A stretch of 64,000 nt of DNA, from assembly GCF_988242995.1 (NCBI RefSeq), contig NZ_OZ547043.1; one strand, given 5' to 3'. The number at the start of each line of letters is the position of its first letter. Within the stretch, counting starts at the first letter, position 1. Below the pieces are notes generated by a model. That model worked only from the letters and a program-made list of their open reading frames with translations, made no database searches and was not told the DNA's origin. The translations under genes were made by a program, and so were the position numbers. Shown piece by piece: positions 2,906 through 43,371 of this stretch.

Positions 2906-4069
2906 TTACGCCTTCTTTATATCCTCCATAATTCCAGAGTGGGACATATTTGGGACATTATCACCAAAAATGTCGTCTATTTTCCTCGCATGCTCTGTCA
3001 AATGATTAGGCGCAAGGTGAGCATACCTACGAACCATTTCTATGGACTCCCATCCGCCCATTTCCTGAAGCACTGATAATGGGACGCCTGACTGAATCAG
3101 CCAGCTTGCCCAGGTGTGTCTGAGGTCATGGAAACGGAAATCTTCAATTCCTGCACGACGACAAGCTGATAGCCATGATGTCTTGCTGTCGATGCGCATC
3201 TTCCTGACCGCAGGCGTTGATGTTCCATCTGCTCGCTTAGCCGCCTTGGTATGTACAAACACCCATTTGTGATGCTTGCCTATTTGATCACGCAACACTT
3301 TACAGGCGGTATCGTTCAGCGCCACACCAATGGCGCGGTTTGATTTGCTCTCTTCTGGATTCACCCAGGCAACTCGTCGCTGCATGTCGATTTGTTGCCA
3401 TTCCAGATTTATGATGTTCGACTTTCTCAGACCAGTTGCCAGCGCAAACTTGACGACAGATTTCAGTGGTTCGGGGCACTCATCAATAAGGCGTTTTGCT
3501 TCCTCCTTTTCCAGCCATCTGACTCGCTTGTTTCTGACCGCTGGTATCTTGATGACAGGCGCTTTTTCCAGCCACTTCCAGTCGCGTTCTGCAGCACGGA
3601 GAATGGCCTTTATCATGGCAAGATGCTTTGCCTTTGTCTGAGTTGATACTGGCTTTGGTTCATAAACAGGCAGTTCTTTACCTTTCCTGATGGCGGCCTG
3701 AACTTTCTGTTTCCATATTTCTTTCGTCTTTCTGTTATGCATTCTGCTTACAGCAGAGTAAATCTTTGCCTCCGAGATATCTTTAAGCCTTATACCCTCA
3801 AAATGTTCAAGCCAGAACTCAATCCGGCTTTTATCTGAATCGAGAGATTTTTTATCAGCTTTTTCCTCAAGCCATCTTAGGCAGGCCTCTTCAAAAGTGA
3901 CATCAGGTAAATCCCCTAGCTTTTCTACTCGCCAGAGTTCTGCTTTTCGCTTGTCGTGCAACTCCTGAGCTTGCCGCTTGTCCTTTGTGCCAAGAGATTC
4001 CTTAATTCGTTTCCCGCCCGGGAGCGAATACGAGGCGTACCATATTTCATTTCTGCGGAAGAGTGACAT
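2906..4069 (-). CDS. intD: Tyrosine integrase
   Basis: 387-aa ORF with H-x-x-R and C-terminal Tyr region ([10 protein letters not shown]...VRRYAHL); directly beside tRNA attL as for DLP12 IntD. Confidence 0.9.
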
Positions 4070-7385: not shown

Positions 7386-7796
7386 TTAGCGATTCAGGCC
7401 GTTAGCGCGTCCGTCGAGAAAAACTTCCACGAGCAAATCACGGGTATAAGTGCGCTCGATGCCGCGATGCAGATAAAGCCGTCCGCGTAAATTACCTGAT
7501 GCAGTCCAGGTACCATCTTTGTGTTTGACCAGCATTCCTGGCATGATCGCACCTCGATTAACGGTCTGCGTTCCGTAATGTTGATGAACCATAAAAACTC
7601 CTGCCCGTAAGCTGGGCTGCTGAACATATAGAGACTTCTGCGCGTATTCAGGCGGTGGATGGCCGCCGGTTGTCATAACTAAGTCGCCTCGTTGAAGCGA
7701 CTGAGGTATGAAGTGTTGAGTTGATTTCAGCTGGTCACACCGACGTTCACGCGTCCGTTTCACCCCTCGCACTCCCCGAAGCCTGCTGAAATTCAA
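7386..7796 (-). CDS. Hypothetical protein at the kil/N position; Arg-rich N-terminus
   Basis: 136-aa ORF downstream of gam; N-terminus [15 protein letters not shown]; true start uncertain. Confidence 0.3.
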
Positions 7797-8035
7797 ACTG
7801 CGGATCTAAGCGGTCATCGCAACGGTGAATCAGGTAGTTGCCGTATCGTTGTGTTGTTGCGATGAACTTATTTAAAACTATAGTTGTTTTATCGTCAACA
7901 ACAAAAGTTGTTTTATTGGTTGTTTTAGATATAACTGGTTGTATTTAGGATGGATTTATTTTGTGACTTGAATCGCATAGCGATAACTGAAGCGAGGTTA
8001 TGGTGGTTTTTTTAACGGTGTGTGTGATGAGGGGA

Positions 8036-8068
8036 GGGCAAAAGAAAACCCGGCACGGTGACCGGGAT
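8036..8068 (-). terminator. Candidate rho-independent terminator on the minus strand, downstream of cI
   Basis: Reverse strand gives hairpin CCCGGTCACCGTGCCGGG followed by TTTTCTTTT. Confidence 0.4.
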
Positions 8069-8187
8069 TCTTACGCCGTTAGGTAAAGATATTATTGCGG
8101 TGGCTTAATATTACTACCTAGAGCAAAGATAGGAATTAGTTCTTTACTGAATGAGCACAATGCCCAGTTGATAATTTTTAATTGGTA

Positions 8188-8877
8188 CTACCCATGCTTC
8201 CTATATGTCTGCGGCATGCTCCCAATAACCTTACCGAAGATGAACACCCGGTTCATCTCGTCTTTCTCGATCGGGTCCCACGGTGAGTAGCTTTTGTTAT
8301 CAGAGATGACCAGCAGCTTATCCTTCATCATTTGCAGGCGCTTTACATGGGCTGTGTCGTCGTACAGAAACGCATAGATACCATCACCGTCGAAAGATTT
8401 AACTGTGATATCAACGAACAGCAGATCACCTGGTTCGATCGTTCCTGACATGCTGTCACCACGCACGTTAATGATGCGGATATTTTCCGCCTTCCTACCA
8501 TCGAACATGTGACGAGCATCGTCAAACGAGTACTCAACCGAGCGTAGAACTTCTACAAACTCACGGTTGATGACTCCCGGCCCAGCACTGACTTCTATAT
8601 CAAGAACGTCAATCTTGAAGTATTTGGAATGGCTGACAGTTGATTGTATTGGTTGCACTGTACTGTCTGACATATTTCCAACGCCAGAAGATAACCATTC
8701 TGCGCGCACACCCAAAGCGTTCGCGATCTCCACGATTTTAGTTGTTTGATTAGCTTTCCCTGTTTCGATTTTCTGAATAGCAGCCTGGCTAACCCCGACC
8801 AAATCCCCAAGCGCCTTTTGTGTAAGGCCTCGCGCTAATCTGGCTTCTTTAAGTCTTTCTGAGAGTGTTGTTTTCAT
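8188..8877 (-). CDS. cI: CI-type repressor (XRE HTH plus LexA-like S24 peptidase domain)
   Basis: 229 aa from MKTTLSERLKEARLARGLTQKALGDLVGVSQAAIQKIE with C-terminal autocleavage-type domain; divergent from cro. Confidence 0.85.
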   Translation of the reverse strand: MKTTLSERLKEARLARGLTQKALGDLVGVSQAAIQKIETGKANQTTKIVEIANALGVRAEWLSSGVGNMSDSTVQPIQSTVSHSKYFKIDVLDIEVSAGPGVINREFVEVLRSVEYSFDDARHMFDGRKAENIRIINVRGDSMSGTIEPGDLLFVDITVKSFDGDGIYAFLYDDTAHVKRLQMMKDKLLVISDNKSYSPWDPIEKDEMNRVFIFGKVIGSMPQTYRKHG

Positions 8878-8981
8878 AGTCCAAATGTACAACCAAGGTT
8901 TTATTCCATCAAACGAAAATGGTTGTTGACTAAAAACAACCATAGTTTTAATCTTGATTCAAATTAACCACGGAGGTTGTT
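8878..8981. promoter_or_regulatory. cI-cro intergenic operator/promoter region (OR-like)
   Basis: Inverted repeat GGTTGTT-N7-AACAACC (8911-8931); similar TTGTT/AACAA motifs recur left of cI at about 7860-7915. Confidence 0.5.
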
Positions 8982-9212
8982 ATGAACCCAGCTATCAAAA
9001 CAGCGATCAATATCGTTGGTTCACAAAAGAAACTGGGCGCTGCTTGCGAAGTTTCACAGCAGGCCGTCTATAAGTGGCTTCACAACAAAGCAAAGGTATC
9101 CCCTGAACATGTCGGCAGCATTGTTACGGCTACTGGTGGAGTAGTGAAGGCATACCAGATTCGCCCGGATCTTCCGAAGTTGTTTCCACACACCGAAAAG
9201 AACGCAGCTTAA
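8982..9212 (+). CDS. cro: Cro/YdaS-like HTH regulator
   Basis: 76-aa HTH ORF with GGAGG RBS, divergent from cI. Confidence 0.7.
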   Translation: MNPAIKTAINIVGSQKKLGAACEVSQQAVYKWLHNKAKVSPEHVGSIVTATGGVVKAYQIRPDLPKLFPHTEKNAA

Positions 9213-9281
9213 ATTTCCATTTCACGCTCTTTAACAATAAGCAATCAACTTAACAGTCAATTCAAACTAAAGGAGTCAATT

Positions 9282-9821
9282 ATGCAACCACTTACATACC
9301 AACAGACTAGCGGATTTAGCCCGACTGCGGTGATAAATCGTTCTCAAACAAAACAGGTGCCAGGCCACGAAAAAATCCGTGATGCCGTCCGCGCCTGGTC
9401 GGCTGTAGATAATCAGGATGTCGTTGCCACACTCATTGTGAATGAGTATCGGGAGCAGGGCGGCGGCACCATCGATTTCCCTGATGATGTCAGCCGTGCA
9501 CGCCAGAAGCTGTTCCGCTTCCTCGATAACAAATTCGATTCTGAAAAATACCGAAATAACGTGCGTGAACTGACCCCGGCAATTCTGGCGGTACTACCGC
9601 TGGAATATCGCGGTTACCTGGTTGAGCAGGATAGCTTCATGGCTAGGTTGGCTGAAATGGAAAAGGAACTCAGTGAGGCAAAACAGGCTGTCATTCTCAA
9701 CGCACCACGCCACCAGAAACTGAAGGAAATTAGTGAAGGTATTGTGTCGATGTTTCGTGTGGACCCAGATCTGGCTGGTCCATTGATGGCGATGGTTACT
9801 ACCATGCTGGGGGCGATATGA
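9282..9821 (+). CDS. YdaT-like protein at the cII position
   Basis: 179-aa ORF following the Cro-like gene; motif TPAILAVLPLEYRGYL recalls the YdaT family as I remember it. Confidence 0.5.
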   Translation: MQPLTYQQTSGFSPTAVINRSQTKQVPGHEKIRDAVRAWSAVDNQDVVATLIVNEYREQGGGTIDFPDDVSRARQKLFRFLDNKFDSEKYRNNVRELTPAILAVLPLEYRGYLVEQDSFMARLAEMEKELSEAKQAVILNAPRHQKLKEISEGIVSMFRVDPDLAGPLMAMVTTMLGAI

Positions 9822-10837
9822 CAGGTTCAGAAATGGCGAAAGCCGGTCTGCTGGAACAGAACCGACTTTCAGGTGCAAATCGTAACACACTCATTGCGGG
9901 AGGAATTATGGCAAACACTGCTGAGATATTCAATTTTCCAGTGCCGGATGCGGCACAAAAGGAGCCGCGCGTGGCAGATCTCGATGATGGTTATACGCGC
10001 ATTGCAAATGAGTTGCTGGAAGCTGTGATGCTGGCCGGATTAACACAGCACCAGCTTCTGGTCTTTCTGGCTGTCATGCGCAAAACATATGGCTTTAATA
10101 AAAAACTGGATTGGGTTAGCAACGAGCAACTTTCCGAATTAACCGGGATATTGCCGCACAAGTGTTCTGCTGCAAAAAGTGTTCTGGTAAAGCGTGGGAT
10201 TTTTATTCAGAGCGGGCGGAATACCGGCATTAATAATGTGGTCAGTGAATGGTCAACATTACCCGAATCAGGTAAGAGAAATAAAGTTTACCTGAAAGAG
10301 GTAAATTTACCTGAATCAGGTAAAAAAAGTTTACCCAAATCAGGTAAAGGCGTTTACCCGAATCAGGTAAACACAAAAGACAAACTAACAAAAGACAATA
10401 TAAAACCTTTTTCGTCCGAGAATTCTGGCGAATCCTCTGACCAACCAGAAAACGATCTTCCTGTGGTGAAACCGGATGCTGCAATTCAGAGCGGCAGCAA
10501 GTGGGGGACAGCAGAAGACCTGACCGCCGCAGAGTGGATGTTTGACATGGTGAAGACCATCGCGCCATCAGCCAGAAAACCGAATTTTGCAGGGTGGGCT
10601 AACGATATCCGCCTGATGCGTGAACGTGACGGACGTAACCACCGCGACATGTGCGTGCTGTTCCGCTGGGCATGCCAGGACAACTTCTGGTCCGGTAACG
10701 TGCTAAGTCCGGCCAAACTCCGCGACAAGTGGACCCAGCTCGAAATCAACCGAAACAAGCAACAGGCTGGCGTGACAGCCGGCAAACCAAAACTCGACCT
10801 GACGAACACTGACTGGATTTACGGGGTGGAGCTATGA
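9818..10837 (+). CDS. O: Replication initiator O (alternative start ATG 9908)
   Basis: Lambda O-like protein whose coding sequence contains the ori iterons; stop overlaps the P start. Confidence 0.8.
   Translation: MTGSEMAKAGLLEQNRLSGANRNTLIAGGIMANTAEIFNFPVPDAAQKEPRVADLDDGYTRIANELLEAVMLAGLTQHQLLVFLAVMRKTYGFNKKLDWVSNEQLSELTGILPHKCSAAKSVLVKRGIFIQSGRNTGINNVVSEWSTLPESGKRNKVYLKEVNLPESGKKSLPKSGKGVYPNQVNTKDKLTKDNIKPFSSENSGESSDQPENDLPVVKPDAAIQSGSKWGTAEDLTAAEWMFDMVKTIAPSARKPNFAGWANDIRLMRERDGRNHRDMCVLFRWACQDNFWSGNVLSPAKLRDKWTQLEINRNKQQAGVTAGKPKLDLTNTDWIYGVEL
10256..10370. repeat. Phage origin iterons inside O (5 copies of TTTACC(C/T)GAATCAGGTAA-like repeat)
   Basis: Directly repeated about 18-bp units at about 20-bp spacing within the O reading frame, as in lambda ori. 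Confidence 0.7.
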
Positions 10838-11535
10838 AAAACATCGCCGCACAGATGGTTAACTTTGACTGTGAGCAGATGCGCCGGATCGCCAACAACA
10901 TGCCGGAACAGTACGACGAAAAGCCACAGGTACAGCAGGTAGCGCAGATCATCAACGGTGTGTTCAGCCAGTTACTGGCAACTTTCCCGGCGAGCCTGGC
11001 TAACCGTGACCAGAATGAACTGAACGAAATCCGCCGCCAGTGGGTTCTGGCTTTCCGGGAAAACGGGATCACCACAATGGAACAGGTTAACGCTGGAATG
11101 CGCGTAGCCCGTCGGCAGAATCGACCATTCCTGCCATCACCCGGGCAGTTTGTCGCCTGGTGCCGGGAAGAAGCATCTGTTAACGCCGGGCTGCCAAACG
11201 TCAGCGAGCTGGTTGATATGGTTTACGAGTATTGCCGGAAGCGTGGCCTGTATCCGGATGCAGAGTCTTATCCGTGGAAATCGAACGCGCATTACTGGTT
11301 GGTTACCAACTTGTACCAGAACATGCGGGCCAATGCGCTGACTGACGCGGAATTACGGCGCAAGGCTGCCGATGAACTGACCTGTATGACAGCGCGAATT
11401 AACCGTGGTGAGACGATACCTGAACCAGTAAAACAACTTCCTGTTATGGGCGGTAGACCTCTAAATCGTGCACAGGCTCTGGCGAAGATCGCAGAAATTA
11501 AAGCTAAGTTTGGACTGAAAGGATCGATGAAATAG
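10834..11535 (+). CDS. P: Replication protein P (DnaB loader)
   Basis: 233-aa ORF near-identical to lambda P (MKNIAAQMVNFD...). Confidence 0.95.
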   Translation: MKNIAAQMVNFDCEQMRRIANNMPEQYDEKPQVQQVAQIINGVFSQLLATFPASLANRDQNELNEIRRQWVLAFRENGITTMEQVNAGMRVARRQNRPFLPSPGQFVAWCREEASVNAGLPNVSELVDMVYEYCRKRGLYPDAESYPWKSNAHYWLVTNLYQNMRANALTDAELRRKAADELTCMTARINRGETIPEPVKQLPVMGGRPLNRAQALAKIAEIKAKFGLKGSMK

Positions 11536-11774: not shown

Positions 11775-14700
11775 ATGACCACTGTGAATAAAAAGTTAAA
11801 AAAAACTGCATCTGGCGCGATTACATGGTCAGTAATTGTTACCCAGATATTATCTCCAGTTTCTCTTTCTTTGATTCCGGCAAACAGTTTTGCATCGTCT
11901 GATAATAAAGATGTTACGCAAATTTATGCTAGCGATGAGCGTGCAAATAAAGTGGCCTCATTTGCAGTAAGTGCAGGTCAGAGTCTGGCGAATAATAATG
12001 CAAGTAGTTTTGCTGTAAATACTTTATCAACTCAGGCGACAAAAGAGGTCGTCGATTGGTTGCAACAATATGGCAATGCGCGCATCAAGCTTAATGTCGA
12101 TGATTCTTTTTCCTTGAAGGATTCATCATTCGACTTTTTATATCCATGGCTGGATACTCAGGATTATGTGCTATTCAGTCAGACATCACTACATCGTACT
12201 GATGACCGTAATCAGACCAATATTGGTTTGGGGATTCGTCATTTCACTCCTGATAATGCAATGTTGGGTGCGAATGTTTTCTACGATTATGATTTAAGTC
12301 GCAGCCACTCTCGCGCAGGTTTTGGGGTTGAGTACTGGAGAGATTATTTCAGGTTTGGTGTAAATACCTATTTTGGTTTATCTGACTGGAAGGACAGTCG
12401 GGATATTGATGATTATCTGGAAAGACCCGCAAATGGCTGGGATTTTTCTGCTGAAGGATGGCTACCTGCTTATCCGCAATTAGGGGCATCTATTCAGTTT
12501 GAAAAATATTATGGTAAAAATGTCGGATTATTTGGAAGCGATAATCTGCAGGAAAACCCTTACGCAGTTACTGGGGGAATTTCTTATACACCAGTTCCTC
12601 TGATTAAGTTTTCTGCACAGCATAAGCAAGGACAGAGCAACGTTCACGATACAACCTTTGGTGTTGAGTTTAATTACCGCCCAGGCGTTTCCCTTGCTGA
12701 ACAGCTTAGCAGTGACAATGTTGCAGTTATGCGAGAAGTCCAGAACCGGCGTTATGATTTTGTTGAACGAAATAACAACATTGTTCTGGAGTACAAGAAG
12801 AAGCATGCACTGAAAATCAGCTTACCAGAGTCTGTTCAGGGGGATGGCGAATCAATCATCCCTGTAACACTGACAATCAACAATGCCAGTGGTGGTATCA
12901 AGTCTGTACAGTGGAATGATAGTGTATTCACTGCGGCTGGCGGTAAGATCAGTGGAAATGGCACATCATGGCAGGTCACTTTACCGGCTTATAAAAGCGA
13001 AGGTGTAAATTCGTGGAATGTTGGAGCCACGGTCCAGGATAATAGAGGCAACGTTTCCAACTATGCGGTGATGAATATTAGCGTTATTAATAGTGGTGTC
13101 TCGACAGCGGATTCTTCTTTTATGTTGGATGGAGATTCATCTCCGACGATCTCTGCTGATGGTCAATCCACTCATCCAATAGTATTAAGCCTGAAAGACA
13201 GTAACGGTAAGGCATTAACCGGACTGGCTGATGACATTGAAATGTCAGTGGAATTTACTGCGGATAGCAATAGTGCTCGACAGCGTGAAACGGTAACTGC
13301 CCCGTCATTAGGCGCGGTAGAGGAAATCTCTGCTGGTGTATATCGCTCTGTTCTGACTGCTGGTTCGCAGGCTGGCACAGTACGTGTAACAGCAAAAGTT
13401 CAGGGAAAAACCTTTACTTTGAATATTAAGCAGGCAGCCGTTATTGATAGTGATGTCTCGACAGCGGATTCTTCTTTTACGTTGGATGGTGATTCGTCTC
13501 CGACGATCTCTGCTGATGGTCAATCCACTCATCCAATAGTATTAAGCCTGAAAGACAGTAACGGTAAGGCATTAACCGGACTGGCTGATGACATTGAAAT
13601 GTCAGTGGAATTTACTGCGGATAGCAATAATGCTCGACAGCGTGAAACGGTAACTGCCCCGTCATTAGGCGCGGTAGAGGAAATCTCTGCTGGTGTATAT
13701 CGCTCTGTTCTGACTGCTGGTTCGCAGGCTGGTACGGTACGTGTAACTGCAAAAGTAATGGATAAAACATTTACTCTCAGTATTAAGCAAACAGCAGCAA
13801 CAGAACCTGATTCTGAGGTCAGTGCTGTTTTAACCGCTGCACCAGCAGAACAGGTAGTTGGTTACAATATCAATCTACAACTGGCAGTGAAGGATTCACA
13901 AGGAAATGCAATCACTGGTGATAACACTCTGAGCTTTTATGCTCTTAACCAGGCAGAAGGAGTCGAGTTTGGGGCAGTAACGGAAAAAGACGGTGTCTAT
14001 AGCGCGACAGTAACTTCAAAACGAGCTGGTAAGATTCGGATCGGTGTTAAATCGGGTAGTCACAATTTCTCAGGTATTGAGAAAGAAATCTCCTTTATTG
14101 AAGATCGAACACAGTTCGCATTCTCTCGTATTGAAGCCAGTAAAAATAATGCATTGGCTGACGGCAAACAAAAGAATACGGTGACTGTAAGCCTTGCAGA
14201 TCGTTTCGGCAATGTTGTGCCCGGTTATGCTGTTACGCTGTCCTTACCTGCGGGGGTAACTCAAGTTGGTGGTGAACATGCTGTGTCAACTGACGAAAAC
14301 GGTAATGCTGTTTTTGCGTTAATAAGCTCCACTCCGGGTTCTTACGTGATTAAAGCTCATGCTGGTTCTCAGATGTCTACTGAGTTAACAGTAACCTTTG
14401 CATCAAATATGATCGGAGCTTCACTGTCACTGACGCCTGGAAACAGTAGCTTAATTTCCAATATTCCTGCTAATGGTAAGGATGCTGCGGTATTGAATGT
14501 GCAACTGACAAATACGAATGCGTCGGTCAATGGACAGAAGATTCAGCTCATCACCTCATCTGAAGGATTGTCTGTACCGACAAATATCGTGACTGATTCA
14601 ACAGGGCATGTTTCCGTACCACTTACAACGGTGAGAGCTGGTGAGTATACGGTGGCTGCACGAGTGACTGACGGTTCCCATAGTGTGGAGTCTGGCAGCG

Positions 14701-15683
14701 TTAAGTTAACTTTTGTACCAGATGCTGCTTCCGCAGAACTTACTATGAGTACATCAAAACAGCAGATTGTGGCCGATGGTAGTGAAAGTGCAACAGTGGA
14801 CATTCAGTTGGTTGATGCCAATAACAATGCGTTTACAGGCGATGTGGATTTAACGGTTACACCATCGACGGGAGCATCATTGACCAGTAGTAAACTGCAG
14901 TTGGATGCTCATGGACAGGCAACAACGCAGTTCACAGCATCGAAATCAGGCCAGTACACAATTCAGGCTGAGTATGTTCTAGATGGGAAACGTATAACCG
15001 CAAGCAAAAATATTGATGCCGTGACGGATGTGAAGGAGGCTGTGTTGGAGATCACATCATCTGCATCTTCGGCTGTAGTGAGCGATACCAACAATCTGAT
15101 ATTTACGTTACTGTTGAAAAGTACGTCAGGCGAAGTATTAAGTGGTCGAGTATTGAATATCAAGGCATCTGGGCCGTCCAAATATGGTGCGTTGGTGGTT
15201 GATAAAACCACTGTAACGACTGATGAGTATGGTCTGGCTACGGTAAGCGTACATGGTCGAACGGCTGGTTCGTATAAATTAACGGCGACCTTAGATGAAC
15301 TTGGCAGTGATGTTAGTGAGGTGAAGTCATTCTCTCTGTATGCTGATGAGGCAAATGGAGTATTGACACTGCATAAAGATGGAGGCTATGACACAGATGA
15401 TGGTACTCCAGTGGGGGTTTATGCCCGATTTGTTGACCATTTCGGCAATCCGTTATCTGGTACGGTTGAGTTTTCTGCTGGTAGTGAAGATAGTCCAAAC
15501 TCTCAACTGGTTAAAATGGAGCCTGCTACAGTAACGTTACACTGGACAGGTAATGCAGCCTCGGAGTTCAGCACCTATGAAAGCGGTTATCACTGGATTA
15601 AGGCCAAAATAACGAACAGCAAAAATACATATGAGAAAACAATAAGGACTTATGTTGTAAAGCTCCCTGAAAAGGATAGTTAA
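11775..15683 (+). CDS. Inverse-autotransporter (intimin/invasin-family) adhesin with repeated Ig-like domains
   Basis: 1302-aa ORF: long signal peptide, beta-barrel-like N-terminal region, then many Big-type repeats; AT-rich upstream region. Confidence 0.75.
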   Translation: MTTVNKKLKKTASGAITWSVIVTQILSPVSLSLIPANSFASSDNKDVTQIYASDERANKVASFAVSAGQSLANNNASSFAVNTLSTQATKEVVDWLQQYGNARIKLNVDDSFSLKDSSFDFLYPWLDTQDYVLFSQTSLHRTDDRNQTNIGLGIRHFTPDNAMLGANVFYDYDLSRSHSRAGFGVEYWRDYFRFGVNTYFGLSDWKDSRDIDDYLERPANGWDFSAEGWLPAYPQLGASIQFEKYYGKNVGLFGSDNLQENPYAVTGGISYTPVPLIKFSAQHKQGQSNVHDTTFGVEFNYRPGVSLAEQLSSDNVAVMREVQNRRYDFVERNNNIVLEYKKKHALKISLPESVQGDGESIIPVTLTINNASGGIKSVQWNDSVFTAAGGKISGNGTSWQVTLPAYKSEGVNSWNVGATVQDNRGNVSNYAVMNISVINSGVSTADSSFMLDGDSSPTISADGQSTHPIVLSLKDSNGKALTGLADDIEMSVEFTADSNSARQRETVTAPSLGAVEEISAGVYRSVLTAGSQAGTVRVTAKVQGKTFTLNIKQAAVIDSDVSTADSSFTLDGDSSPTISADGQSTHPIVLSLKDSNGKALTGLADDIEMSVEFTADSNNARQRETVTAPSLGAVEEISAGVYRSVLTAGSQAGTVRVTAKVMDKTFTLSIKQTAATEPDSEVSAVLTAAPAEQVVGYNINLQLAVKDSQGNAITGDNTLSFYALNQAEGVEFGAVTEKDGVYSATVTSKRAGKIRIGVKSGSHNFSGIEKEISFIEDRTQFAFSRIEASKNNALADGKQKNTVTVSLADRFGNVVPGYAVTLSLPAGVTQVGGEHAVSTDENGNAVFALISSTPGSYVIKAHAGSQMSTELTVTFASNMIGASLSLTPGNSSLISNIPANGKDAAVLNVQLTNTNASVNGQKIQLITSSEGLSVPTNIVTDSTGHVSVPLTTVRAGEYTVAARVTDGSHSVESGSVKLTFVPDAASAELTMSTSKQQIVADGSESATVDIQLVDANNNAFTGDVDLTVTPSTGASLTSSKLQLDAHGQATTQFTASKSGQYTIQAEYVLDGKRITASKNIDAVTDVKEAVLEITSSASSAVVSDTNNLIFTLLLKSTSGEVLSGRVLNIKASGPSKYGALVVDKTTVTTDEYGLATVSVHGRTAGSYKLTATLDELGSDVSEVKSFSLYADEANGVLTLHKDGGYDTDDGTPVGVYARFVDHFGNPLSGTVEFSAGSEDSPNSQLVKMEPATVTLHWTGNAASEFSTYESGYHWIKAKITNSKNTYEKTIRTYVVKLPEKDS
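13083..13796. repeat. Near-perfect tandem duplication (2 x 357 bp) inside the adhesin gene
   Basis: 13083-13439 and 13440-13796 differ at only a few positions; each encodes one 119-aa Ig-like repeat. Confidence 0.9.
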
Positions 15684-15722: not shown

Positions 15723-15981
15723 ATTGAGACGGACTGTTTCTTAAATTCACTTACGTTAGATATGAACTGGTTATTTTTTATAACAATAAAAGACTTTTGA
15801 TTTTTGAATATCAGTAAGTAATAATGATTTACGTCGACAGACTGAACATCTGTTGGTGACTTCTGCGCTAAACGGGGACGTTTATGCGCACATACAATCT
15901 AAACTCTCTTCTCTCTTCACAGATGCAGAAATGCACCTGCGATTCTTTGCATCCAACGTTTGACCTCTGCGGAGGTGAAGC

Positions 15982-17386: not shown

Positions 17387-17471
17387 AGTCAGAGATAACA
17401 ATCAACTAATGCTGTTTTGTTGATTTTTGCTTGTAATTGGCGTTCTGGTCTGAGTTTTGTGGAGTAAGTTG

Positions 17472-17849
17472 ATGCGTGATATTCAGATGGTTCTTGAGCG
17501 TTGGGGAGCGTGGGCGGCTAATAATCATGAAGATGTGACCTGGTCGTCCATTGCCGCCGGTTTTAAGGGATTAATTCCTTCAAAAGTAAAATCTCGCCCA
17601 CAATGTTGTGACGATGACGCGATGATCATTTGCGGGTGCATGGCCCGTCTGAAAAAGAACAACAGCGATTTGCATGATTTATTGGTGGACTATTATGTCG
17701 GCGGCATGACTTTTATGGCGCTTGCACGTAAGCATGGGCGATCTGATTGTTGGGTTGGCAGGATGCTCCAGAAAGCTGAGGGCGTAGTGGAGGGTATGCT
17801 GATGGTATTGGATCTCCGATTGGAGATGGATGCTGATTGTTCGAAATAA
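17472..17849 (+). CDS. quuD: Late-gene antiterminator Q
   Basis: ATG at 17472 with [33 protein letters not shown]... matches DLP12 QuuD. Confidence 0.85.
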
Positions 17850-42660: not shown

Positions 42661-43371
42661 TGTGCACAGAAAACCCCCAGCTAGGCTGGGGGTTCCGGAA
42701 AGCTTTCAGCTTTGAGCCAGTTATTAAAACCCCTTTTGATTTGTTAAAACACCTTGCGGTCTGGCAACTGCAAGTGTCAAACAAGAAATCAAAAGGGGGT
42801 CCCAATGGGGAACGAAAAGAGCTTAGCGCACACCCGATGGAACTGTAAATATCACATAGTTTTTGCGCCAAAATACCGAAGACAGGTGTTCTACAGAGAG
42901 AAGCGTAGAGCAATAGGCAGTATTTTGAGAAAGCTGTGTGAGTGGAAAAGCGTACGGATTCTGGAAGCTGAATGCTGTGCAGATCATATCCATATGCTTG
43001 TGGAGATCCCGCCCAAAATGAGCGTATCCGGGTTTATGGGATATCTGAAAGGGAAAAGCAGTCTGATGCTTTACGAGCAGTTTGGTGATTTGAAATTCAA
43101 ATACAGGAACAGGGAGTTCTGGTGCAGAGGGTACTACGTCGATACAGTGGGTAAGAACACGGCGAAGATACAGGATTACATAAAGCACCAGCTTGAAGAG
43201 GATAAAATGGGAGAGCAGTTATCGATTCCCTATCCGGGCAGCCCGTTTACGGGCCGTAAGTAACGAAGTTGGATGCAAATGTCAGATCGTGTGCGCCTGT
43301 TAGGGCGCGGCTGGTAAGAGAGCCTTATAGGCGCATTTGAAAAACCTCCGGCTATGCCGGAGGATATTTAT
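42661..43371 (+). mobile_element. IS200-family insertion sequence (about 711 bp)
   Basis: Left-end hairpin AAACCCCCAGCTAGGCTGGGGGTT, Y1-type transposase gene, right-end hairpin CCTCCGGC-TAT-GCCGGAGG; interrupts U. Confidence 0.85.
42805..43263 (+). CDS. tnpA: IS200 transposase TnpA (Y1 HUH)
   Basis: 152 aa from MGNEKSLAHTRWNCKYHIVFAPKYRRQ... with HxH (HIHML) motif. Confidence 0.9.
   Translation: MGNEKSLAHTRWNCKYHIVFAPKYRRQVFYREKRRAIGSILRKLCEWKSVRILEAECCADHIHMLVEIPPKMSVSGFMGYLKGKSSLMLYEQFGDLKFKYRNREFWCRGYYVDTVGKNTAKIQDYIKHQLEEDKMGEQLSIPYPGSPFTGRK

Follow-up and report, generated by a model that had tools for sequence, protein, structure and literature searches.

Organization of the locus

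The window analyzed here, that is, the whole stretch of 64,000 nucleotides from contig NZ_OZ547043.1 (RefSeq assembly GCF_988242995.1), carries an E. coli lambdoid prophage integrated at tRNA-Arg(TCT). The integrase gene (2906-4069, minus strand) adjoins the tRNA-Arg(TCT) gene (2814-2890), and a Q antiterminator is encoded at 17457-17849. The gene under study, at 9282-9821, is carried by this prophage, in the following setting.

8188-8877, minus strand: CI-type repressor (HTH_3 plus peptidase S24; Pfam PF00717, E = 1.5e-18, and PF01381, E = 6.5e-13)
8878-8981, no strand: divergent promoter/operator region (OR-like) in the cI/cro-like gap, 104 bp, with ACAACC/GGTTGT repeats
8982-9212, plus strand: Cro-like/YdaS-family small HTH regulator, 76 aa (Pfam PF15943, E = 4.1e-17; PHROG 35)
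9282-9821, plus strand: regulator gene of the YdaT family and phi80-CII type, ATG start, 179 aa (profile, fold, identity to phi80 cII)
9304-9309, minus strand: candidate -10 hexamer TAGTCT of a putative PRE-like promoter, a TAnnnT at the conserved 29.5-bp spacing from the box
9330-9347, no strand: candidate YdaT box GTGATAAATCGTTCTCAA, codons 17 to 22 of the 179-aa gene, with core TGA at 9331-9333 and TCA at 9344-9346
9830-9898, minus strand: oop/M3-like small antisense RNA, from the cII-like stop to the probable O start (ends approximate)
9908-10837, plus strand: lambda-type replication initiator O (Phage_rep_O; PF04492, E = 1.1e-33), in an open reading frame that opens at 9818
10834-11535, plus strand: lambda-type helicase loader P (Phage_lambda_P; PF06992, E = 7.8e-62)

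The preliminary description of this DNA had placed a 179-aa gene after cro, and the open reading frame indeed occupies exactly 9282-9821 on the plus strand; the motif then read as YdaT-like, TPAILAVLPLEYRGYL, corresponds to residues 98 to 113. The ATG is preceded, at a distance of 7 nt, by a strong ribosome-binding site, AAGGAG, and the spacer from the cro-like gene is 69 nt long. The repressor gene is transcribed divergently from the cro-like gene, the 179-aa gene, O and P, all on the plus strand. The position is that of cro-cII, as had been proposed: the 179-aa gene fills the slot of lambda cII between the Cro-like gene and O/P.

For the CI-type repressor, the mechanical open reading frame extends to 8943; translation more likely begins with MKTTLSERL at 8877, and RefSeq has a 229-aa S24 peptidase with the equivalent start in an identical module. 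The OR-like region contains a 9-nt inverted repeat whose arms, 8919-8927 and 8935-8943, are 100% complementary, as well as a direct repeat (8889-8906/8936-8953). Its AACAAC motif is found again to the left of cI, near 7880-7950. The product of 8982-9212 matched PF15943 (YdaS_toxin/Cro-like) with 62 bits for a cut-off of 30, and PHROG 35 (transcriptional repressor) with E = 1.5e-27, while its match to P22_Cro was weak. A boxA-like sequence between this gene and the next, CGCTCTTTAACAA (9225-9237), was considered as a candidate nutR site; the PL side has no further copy of it, and matches with one mismatch occurred at chance level.

The start of O is probably the ATG at 9908, rather than the point at 9818 where the frame opens. 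In the 339-aa O frame, similarity to PHROG 277 sets in at residue 31, and the start at 9908 comes with GGAGGAATTATG and a conserved intergenic region that are also present in relatives. The region ahead of this start appears to encode a small RNA on the minus strand. A promoter-like site, TTGAAT-17-CATAAT, runs from 9933 to 9905 on that strand, and a terminator hairpin is found at 9838-9870. The hairpin has compensatory changes in 7 of its 19 pairs across 7 phages, with a folding z of -3.1, and in the phi80 annotation M3 RNA ('homolog of lambda oop') occupies the same position. The Rfam search returned no match to an oop or M3 family, so that support for the RNA comes from its phi80 counterpart and from covariation.

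Family and predicted fold of the 179-aa protein

A search with the YdaT profile had been proposed as the check on the family assignment, absence of similarity being the result that would speak against it. The protein matched PF06254 (YdaT_toxin) with 103.5 bits (E = 8.5e-30), far above the gathering cut-off of 21 bits, over residues 67 to 154, which correspond to profile positions 1 to 90 of 92. The match to PHROG 163 ('CII-like transcriptional activator') was longer and stronger (E = 3.9e-67), spanning residues 17 to 179 and all 168 profile positions. Starting from the single sequence, phmmer reached the solved YdaT structures, 8bt1 from CP-933P (E = 0.002) and 3c4r (E = 0.004).

An AlphaFold2 monomer model was built from an alignment of 28 relatives (mean pLDDT 78). 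In this model, residues 1 to 27 are disordered and are followed by an HTH domain (30 to 113) with helices at 30-43, 45-58, 70-82, 88-104 and 107-113, and a loop at 59-69. A long confident helix comes next (119-138), then two extra confident helices within 143-178. The model matches the YdaT architecture, in which an all-alpha, POU-like HTH with a long alpha2-alpha3 loop precedes a long helix. When it was compared with the PDB using Foldseek, chains of 3c4r and 8bt1 made up the top five matches (probability 1.00, TM 0.68 to 0.73, rmsd 2.6 to 3.4 A over 117 to 123 aligned columns, 26 to 28% identity), and every other PDB match had E > 2.

The recognition helix, RARQKLFRFLDN (RQKLFRFLDN), showed no change among the 28 relatives, which are 65 to 97% identical. 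Its Arg79, invariant in these relatives, aligns with the Arg of the QKIFRW motif in 8bt1 and 3c4r. This Arg is the sole residue of the recognition helix kept throughout the family (PMC9986795), and it is needed for DNA binding by YdaT (PMC9986795, PMC11879457). Profile, sequence and fold tests confirmed that the protein belongs to the YdaT family.

No model of NCBIfam or PADLOC, toxin-antitoxin models included, matched the protein, and Pfam Phage_CII gave no match at E <= 0.01. When the profile of the protein was aligned with lambda CII by hhalign, the probability was 1.3% (the lambda CII sequence used was approximate). The protein is a putative functional analogue of lambda CII and, judged by these comparisons, not a homologue of it.

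Relatives, distribution and annotation

A counterpart is found in phage phi80, where the GenBank annotation gives the gene the name cII; its product is 66.1% identical to the protein over residues 1 to 179 (E = 3e-77). Identity was 67% with CII of mEp237, 52% with CII of HK225 and HK639, and 73% with the homologue of Enterobacter phage CobraSix. A gene 97 to 100% identical was present in 16 phage records, where most depositors named it cII or CII-like activator; among them PhiR34_1, IdasGreatGrand, 4A7, 1W, 3W and Perceval have the same cI-cro-cII-O-P order. The whole cI-cro-cII-O-P block is 97 to 99% identical in temperate coliphages, including PhiR34_1, IdasGreatGrand, PhiR47_2, PhiR5_1 and PhiR26_1, and the order cI, cro, YdaT-like gene, O, P recurs in phi80, mEp237, HK225 and PhiR34_1.

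Among complete E. coli genomes, 2222 of 5426 had the cro-like/YdaT-like pair at 95% identity or more, with 80% or more of the query present in 1507 of these 2222. The family as a whole has few members: 111 clusters came up at E <= 0.001 when 1.84 billion cluster representatives were searched exhaustively. Relatives with a name come from Enterobacteriaceae, apart from outliers in phages of Aeromonas and Actinobacillus. In RefSeq, the gene at 9282-9821 goes by the name 'toxin YdaT domain-containing protein'. It is in fact an already known and catalogued phi80-type cII gene, ordinary for a lambdoid prophage.

Toxin or regulator

Pairs of this kind had been described beforehand as either toxin-antitoxin modules or lysis-lysogeny regulators, and both readings are present in the literature. 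The former arose from prediction tools and from two 2017 mSphere papers on Rac, in which YdaS and YdaT were toxic on derepression; it was disputed by Jobling in 2018. According to Jurenas and colleagues (2021), YdaT of CP-933P lacks toxicity and turns on a silent leftward promoter, PRE933P, located between ydaS and ydaT; these authors reject a toxin-antitoxin module and treat YdaS and YdaT as analogues of Cro and CII, YdaT being homologous to CII of phi80 (PMC8630535). Prolic-Kalinsek and colleagues (2023) found that CP-933P YdaT combines a POU-like HTH with a helix that forms a four-helix bundle, is a tetramer in solution, and gives a footprint on a TTGATT-N6-AATCAA site (PMC9986795). For Rac, Wons and colleagues (2025) showed that YdaT binds ATGATTCATGAAAATCAA across its own start codon, and that leftward transcription then rises 29-fold and racR expression is raised (PMC11879457). 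In that report, overexpression of Rac YdaT leads to filamentation and to death in a subpopulation, and the toxicity is attributed to activation of host rcsA (PMC11879457).

Applied to our locus, the toxin-antitoxin reading would have the 179-aa protein act as a toxin neutralized by the small HTH protein encoded upstream, the pair stabilizing the prophage. Pfam and RefSeq keep the names 'toxin YdaT' and 'toxin YdaS', and the effects observed with Rac speak in the same direction. Against this, the predicted fold consists of an HTH DNA-binding domain and an oligomerization helix, with no toxin fold in the model. The gene lies within an early rightward operon, directly followed by O/P, rather than in a self-contained operon of two genes. 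Nor does it keep to one partner, since at least 33 different cro types are paired with genes of the cII-type lineages. It is also present in viable phages, and the rcsA effect accounts for the toxicity of Rac YdaT. Taken with the absence of toxicity in CP-933P and the negative PADLOC search, these points leave the toxin-antitoxin reading very improbable.

The preliminary description had left the role of the gene open. This was an overstatement, given its orthology with phi80 cII, the studies of homologues, its occurrence in plaque-forming phages and the HTH fold. In our analysis the role of the YdaT family is not really open, and the 179-aa protein is a putative DNA-binding regulator and not a toxin.

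A conserved box within the first codons of the gene

A binding site was sought by comparing relatives of the gene. The first scan of viral contigs yielded only relatives 97 to 100% identical, too much alike to reveal a footprint. More diverse sequences were obtained by scanning with the phi80, Klebsiella and PHB10 homologues; in all, four viral-contig scans and the phage records gave 218 distinct coding sequences. We then compared 180 distinct regions extending from -120 to +100, belonging to several lineages with 48 to 100% protein identity. A protein-guided codon alignment introduces a gap into the box in the PHB10 lineage, and an ungapped comparison was used instead.

Upstream of the ATG, nothing was conserved among the 180 regions except purines at the ribosome-binding site. 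Within the gene, TGATA at +50 to +54 and TCA at +63 to +65 (TGATA-N8-TCA, 9331-9346) were present in 180 of 180 regions, two of the positions being conserved in 179, while the eight bases in between and the flanks varied freely. The conservation extends to bases that the protein leaves free. Codon 17 ends in TG in every relative, though it encodes Met, Val or Leu, and +63 is a T in all of them, at the third position of codons for Ser, Ala, Asn or Cys. The Ile18 codon is ATA in 179 of the 180 relatives; ATA is a rare codon in E. coli. Near-invariant third positions among those free to vary numbered 5 of 20 in codons 1 to 22, compared to 0 of 139 in the rest of the gene (Fisher P = 2e-5, a nominal value, as the sequences are kin and conservation statistics on relatives sharing descent are not independent tests, but both parts of the gene share one tree).

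The resulting TGA-N10-TCA corresponds to the core of TTGATT-N6-AATCAA, the YdaT box described in the literature. Two distant phages have this core as well, Citrobacter phage Chris1 (35% identity, position +49) and Aeromonas phage pAEv1818 (38% identity, position +46); the short-form Rac genes carry it across their ATG, in agreement with the published site. The box of the window has the core only, with 4 mismatches to TTGATT-N6-AATCAA.

Other candidate sites were discarded. When as many as 3 mismatches to TTGATT-N6-AATCAA were allowed, 56 occurrences were counted, for 43 expected; the two near the gene, at 9231-9248 and 8954-8971, were weak and were rejected as evidence, the pattern showing neither enrichment nor a close full match around the 9282-9821 gene. 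For TGAT-N9-TCA, 18 occurrences were counted in the window, compared to 10.6 expected, with no clear second target of the PI or PaQ kind. A direct repeat ahead of the gene, two copies of AGTCAATT at 9255 and 9274 (TTGAYT on the minus strand), had been considered as a CII site of the lambda kind, but it fails to recur in relatives, where the cro-cII spacer is wholly different.

Conservation of codons 1 to 22 could also stem from constraints on translation initiation or on the mRNA, or mark a recombination junction between immunity and replication modules. The start of cII is a mosaic boundary: across the same cII lineages, along with the at least 33 cro types, the cro-cII spacers range from 2 to 85 nt, and the allele of the window itself occurs with at least two cro types. 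Synonymous constraint is common at the 5' ends of genes, and codon identity is raised at the 3' end of this gene too. What is conserved, though, is not a block of identity but a set of isolated invariant bases (TGATA, TCA, TA, A) amid varying positions. Their core and spacing reproduce the box footprinted for YdaT (PMC9986795, PMC11879457), and in the short-form Rac genes the box sits over the ATG, which is a different position on the mRNA. We consider the translation or junction explanation unlikely, while leaving it some weight; as a sequence pattern, discrete invariant bases fit a protein-binding site better.

A candidate leftward promoter next to the box

A second conserved patch, CAACAnAnTAnC(G/A)GA, occupies +19 to +33 and corresponds on the minus strand to TAnnnT, 29.5 bp from the center of the box. 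A23, T27 and A28 were invariant in the 180 sequences. Of 14 loci compared, drawn from 4 lineage groups, 13 have TAnnnT at the 29.5-bp spacing (with a one-base correction of the box in the Rac-type loci). The hexamers are TAGTCT in the window, TATTGT in phi80, TATTTT in Klebsiella phages, TACTCT in PHB10, TATTAT in Chris1, TAACAT in pAEv1818 and TATGAT in K-12-like Rac. If TAnnnT is taken as a -10 element, the box is centered at -41.5 and transcription would start near 9297; a center at -41.5 is where class II activators classically sit at promoters devoid of a -35 element. Several points count against this reading: the candidate TAGTCT is a weak hexamer (3 of 6) that the generic promoter scan did not call, no pRE is annotated in the GenBank records of phi80, the Rac model has the YdaT-dependent promoter at some distance from the box, and the CP-933P box is at the end of ydaS.

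This arrangement suggests that a PRE-like leftward promoter is embedded in the 5' end of the gene itself. The lambda PRE likewise overlaps the start of cII. The putative promoter may consist of a TGA-N10-TCA box at -41.5 and a TAnnnT -10 element, set at the same spacing across the YdaT family, K-12-like Rac included. We put forward as a tentative proposal, which we rate at a little under an even chance, that the first 22 or so codons of phi80-type cII genes, encoding the disordered extension, double as a CII-dependent leftward promoter. If so, the promoter activated by YdaT would be adjacent to the box, in a class II arrangement, and not some 190 bp away, where the Rac study places PracR4, apparently by prediction rather than by mapping start sites in induced cells (PMC11879457). 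The geometry of activation by YdaT would then be simpler, and the lysogeny-establishment promoter of a very common prophage family would be located.

A protein bound within its own gene might instead act as a repressor or roadblock, stopping rightward transcription into itself and O/P, with negative autoregulation and damped replication as the outcome. The conserved candidate box does lie inside a transcribed gene; YdaT is termed a repressor by Prolic-Kalinsek and colleagues, whose OM site spans a transcription start, and the YdaT tetramer can hold two duplexes (PMC9986795). In Rac, a further site bound by YdaT covers the ydaS promoter (PMC11879457). But leftward activation was measured in both functional studies, at PRE933P (PMC8630535) and in Rac, where expression of ydaT changed little with the box bound (PMC11879457). 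Moreover, a roadblock leaves the minus-strand TAnnnT at fixed spacing unexplained. As the main role it is improbable, though roadblock or autorepressor activity could coexist with activation.

Proposed role

Returning to leftward activation, we consider it very probable that 9282-9821 encodes a transcription factor for the establishment of lysogeny, of the YdaT family and phi80-CII subtype, acting in this manner. From family membership, fold, genomic position and the conserved DNA motif, we infer binding, activation, promoter position and an effect on lysogeny along the following lines. The gene would be transcribed, after cro, from the rightward early promoter. Its product would oligomerize, probably through the long C-terminal helices, tetramers being the result obtained with homologues, and would bind an inverted repeat of the TGA-N10-TCA type via the recognition helix RQKLFRFLDN and Arg79. 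The target may be the box at 9330-9347, serving a promoter devoid of a -35 element (TAGTCT at 9309-9304, start near 9297) within the first 22 codons of the gene. Leftward transcription would then be activated through cro and into the cI-like repressor gene, yielding a transcript antisense to cro and sense to cI, like that of lambda PRE. Transcription of the cI-like gene would push the infected cell to lysogeny.

As a routine lambdoid immunity module, the locus matters little in itself. The conserved box and hexamer in the N-terminal codons are the only new item, and they are a detail rather than a new system. The public label 'toxin YdaT' is wrong in thousands of E. coli genomes, and identity as a phi80-type cII corrects it.

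Comparison with known systems

The system most similar to ours is CII of phi80 and its group (mEp237, HK225 and HK639), in which the proteins fall in the same length class (178 to 183 aa) and have the same N-terminal extension, the same recognition helix and C-terminal helices in common with the 179-aa protein. In phi80, the gene sits in the same slot between a cro analogue and O/P-type genes, and is followed by the oop/M3-like RNA. Differences are found at residues 17 to 22, which read VINRSQ here and MINRAQ in the phi80 group, in the C-terminal half, which is a different variant, and in the cro and cI partners. Unlike in phi80, the annotated O frame of the window overlaps the cII stop codon.

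YdaT of CP-933P (8bt1) and the homologue of E. coli O6:H1 (3c4r) share with the 179-aa protein the Pfam family, the fold, the Arg of the recognition helix and a cro-cII-like slot, and the CP-933P site has the core TGA-N10-TCA in common with the candidate box of the window. At 26 to 28% identity they are distant from our protein, which is longer by some 28 residues at its N-terminus (a disordered stretch in the model) and has the two confident helices at its C-terminus, in a region that is disordered in CP-933P YdaT. The CP-933P box is placed at the end of ydaS, whereas the candidate box of the window is inside the YdaT-like gene.

Rac YdaT belongs to the same family, with a box at the 5' end of its gene and leftward activation toward the repressor. 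A PAILA(I/V)LP motif is, we take it, common to K-12 Rac YdaT and the 179-aa protein. Rac YdaT is a short form of 140 aa whose box covers the start codon rather than codons 17 to 22. TATGAT is found in K-12-like Rac at the same distance from the box as the hexamer of the window, unlike PracR4, which the published account puts 190 bp away. Control of host rcsA is a feature of Rac YdaT.

Finally, lambda CII has the same gene position and the same proposed role, with an oop-type antisense RNA downstream. It is a tetrameric HTH activator of a leftward promoter that lacks a -35 element and overlaps the 5' coding end of its own gene. The way in which the two proteins meet DNA is different: lambda CII is an asymmetric tetramer that recognizes a direct repeat, TTGC-N6-TTGC, whereas YdaT is 222-symmetric and recognizes an inverted repeat (PMC9986795).

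Small RNA and start of the O gene

Two minus-strand features were recorded in this region:
9830-9898, minus strand, oop/M3-like small RNA, immediately past the stop codon of the cII-like gene
9933 to 9905, minus strand, promoter-like site for this RNA

The terminator hairpin of the small RNA (9838-9870) is conserved among the seven phages compared, and 7 of its 19 pairs show compensatory changes. The RNA is detected by no Rfam family. In phi80, the equivalent position is occupied by the annotated M3 RNA, described as a 'homolog of lambda oop'.

The first ATG of the O open reading frame (9818), which the RefSeq annotation uses as the start, overlaps the stop codon of the cII-like gene. The PHROG match to this frame starts only at residue 31, and a further ATG at 9908 is preceded by a GGAGG ribosome-binding site. 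Relatives have, in the region equivalent to 9818-9908, a non-coding gap that contains the small RNA. The true start of O is probably 9908.

Candidate regulatory sites around the early region

Four short elements were recorded:
8049-8066, terminator-like hairpin
8954-8971, YdaT-box-like site TTGATTCAAATTAACCAC, left half-site perfect, right half-site poor
9225-9237, boxA-like CGCTCTTTAACAA, in the cro-cII spacer
15797-15814, YdaT-box-like palindrome TTGATTTTTGAATATCAG, two mismatches, TGAT and ATCA cores both present

Within the window, the best palindrome resembling the YdaT box (the published inverted repeat TTGATT-N6-AATCAA) is TTGATTTTTGAATATCAG, which falls past the adhesin gene and before the nin region, some 1.6 kb upstream of Q. 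This palindrome may be either a second target or a product of chance. The other site, TTGATTCAAATTAACCAC, overlaps the probable start of PR, the rightward early promoter, just upstream of the ribosome-binding site of the cro-like gene. For Rac YdaT, binding between cI and cro of its own prophage has been reported (PMC11879457).

In the cro-cII spacer, CGCTCTTTAACAA resembles boxA, an element found in nut sites and in rrn operons. It is neither followed by a boxB-like hairpin nor present in a second copy on the PL side, so the likeness may be due to chance. To the left of cI, about 800 bp (7386-8190, minus strand) separate the PL/OL-like repeats (approximately 7880-7950) from the gam/kil region, and the terminator-like hairpin falls within this stretch. 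An open reading frame in it, of which a 96-aa form spans 7386-7676, has no Pfam match; in lambda this position is taken by the N gene.

Possible adhesin cargo gene and a small-RNA match

Two further features were found, one between P and the nin/Q region, the other in the late/structural region of the prophage:
11775-15683, plus strand, inverse autotransporter of 1302 aa, intimin/invasin family (IAT_beta, E = 1.7e-100)
42672-42795, plus strand, STnc490 Hfq-binding sRNA (Rfam match, 146 bits)

The inverse autotransporter has five or six Big_1/Invasin_D3 repeats, and includes a near-identical pair of internal repeats, each about 110 aa long. Its gene is inserted at a place that in related phages is occupied by ren and small genes, and has the look of adhesin cargo carried by the prophage.

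Composition of phi80-type cII proteins

Residues 116-126 of the 179-aa protein, at the start of a long helix, read QDSFMARLAEM, which resembles VDDDMARLARQ at residues 63-73 of lambda CII; this match extends over 11 columns only and lacks significance (hhalign probability 1.3%). Comparison of window 9282-9821 with the loci carrying phi80-type cII genes (L082-L089) indicated that these genes are mosaic. Their C-terminal half comes in two versions, ...LAPQNDTMSLIASAMKEC... and ...LLPEDSFMSRLARLEKET..., joined to differing N-terminal DNA-binding halves. HK225 cII, for example, combines a phi80-type C-terminal half with a divergent DNA-binding half.
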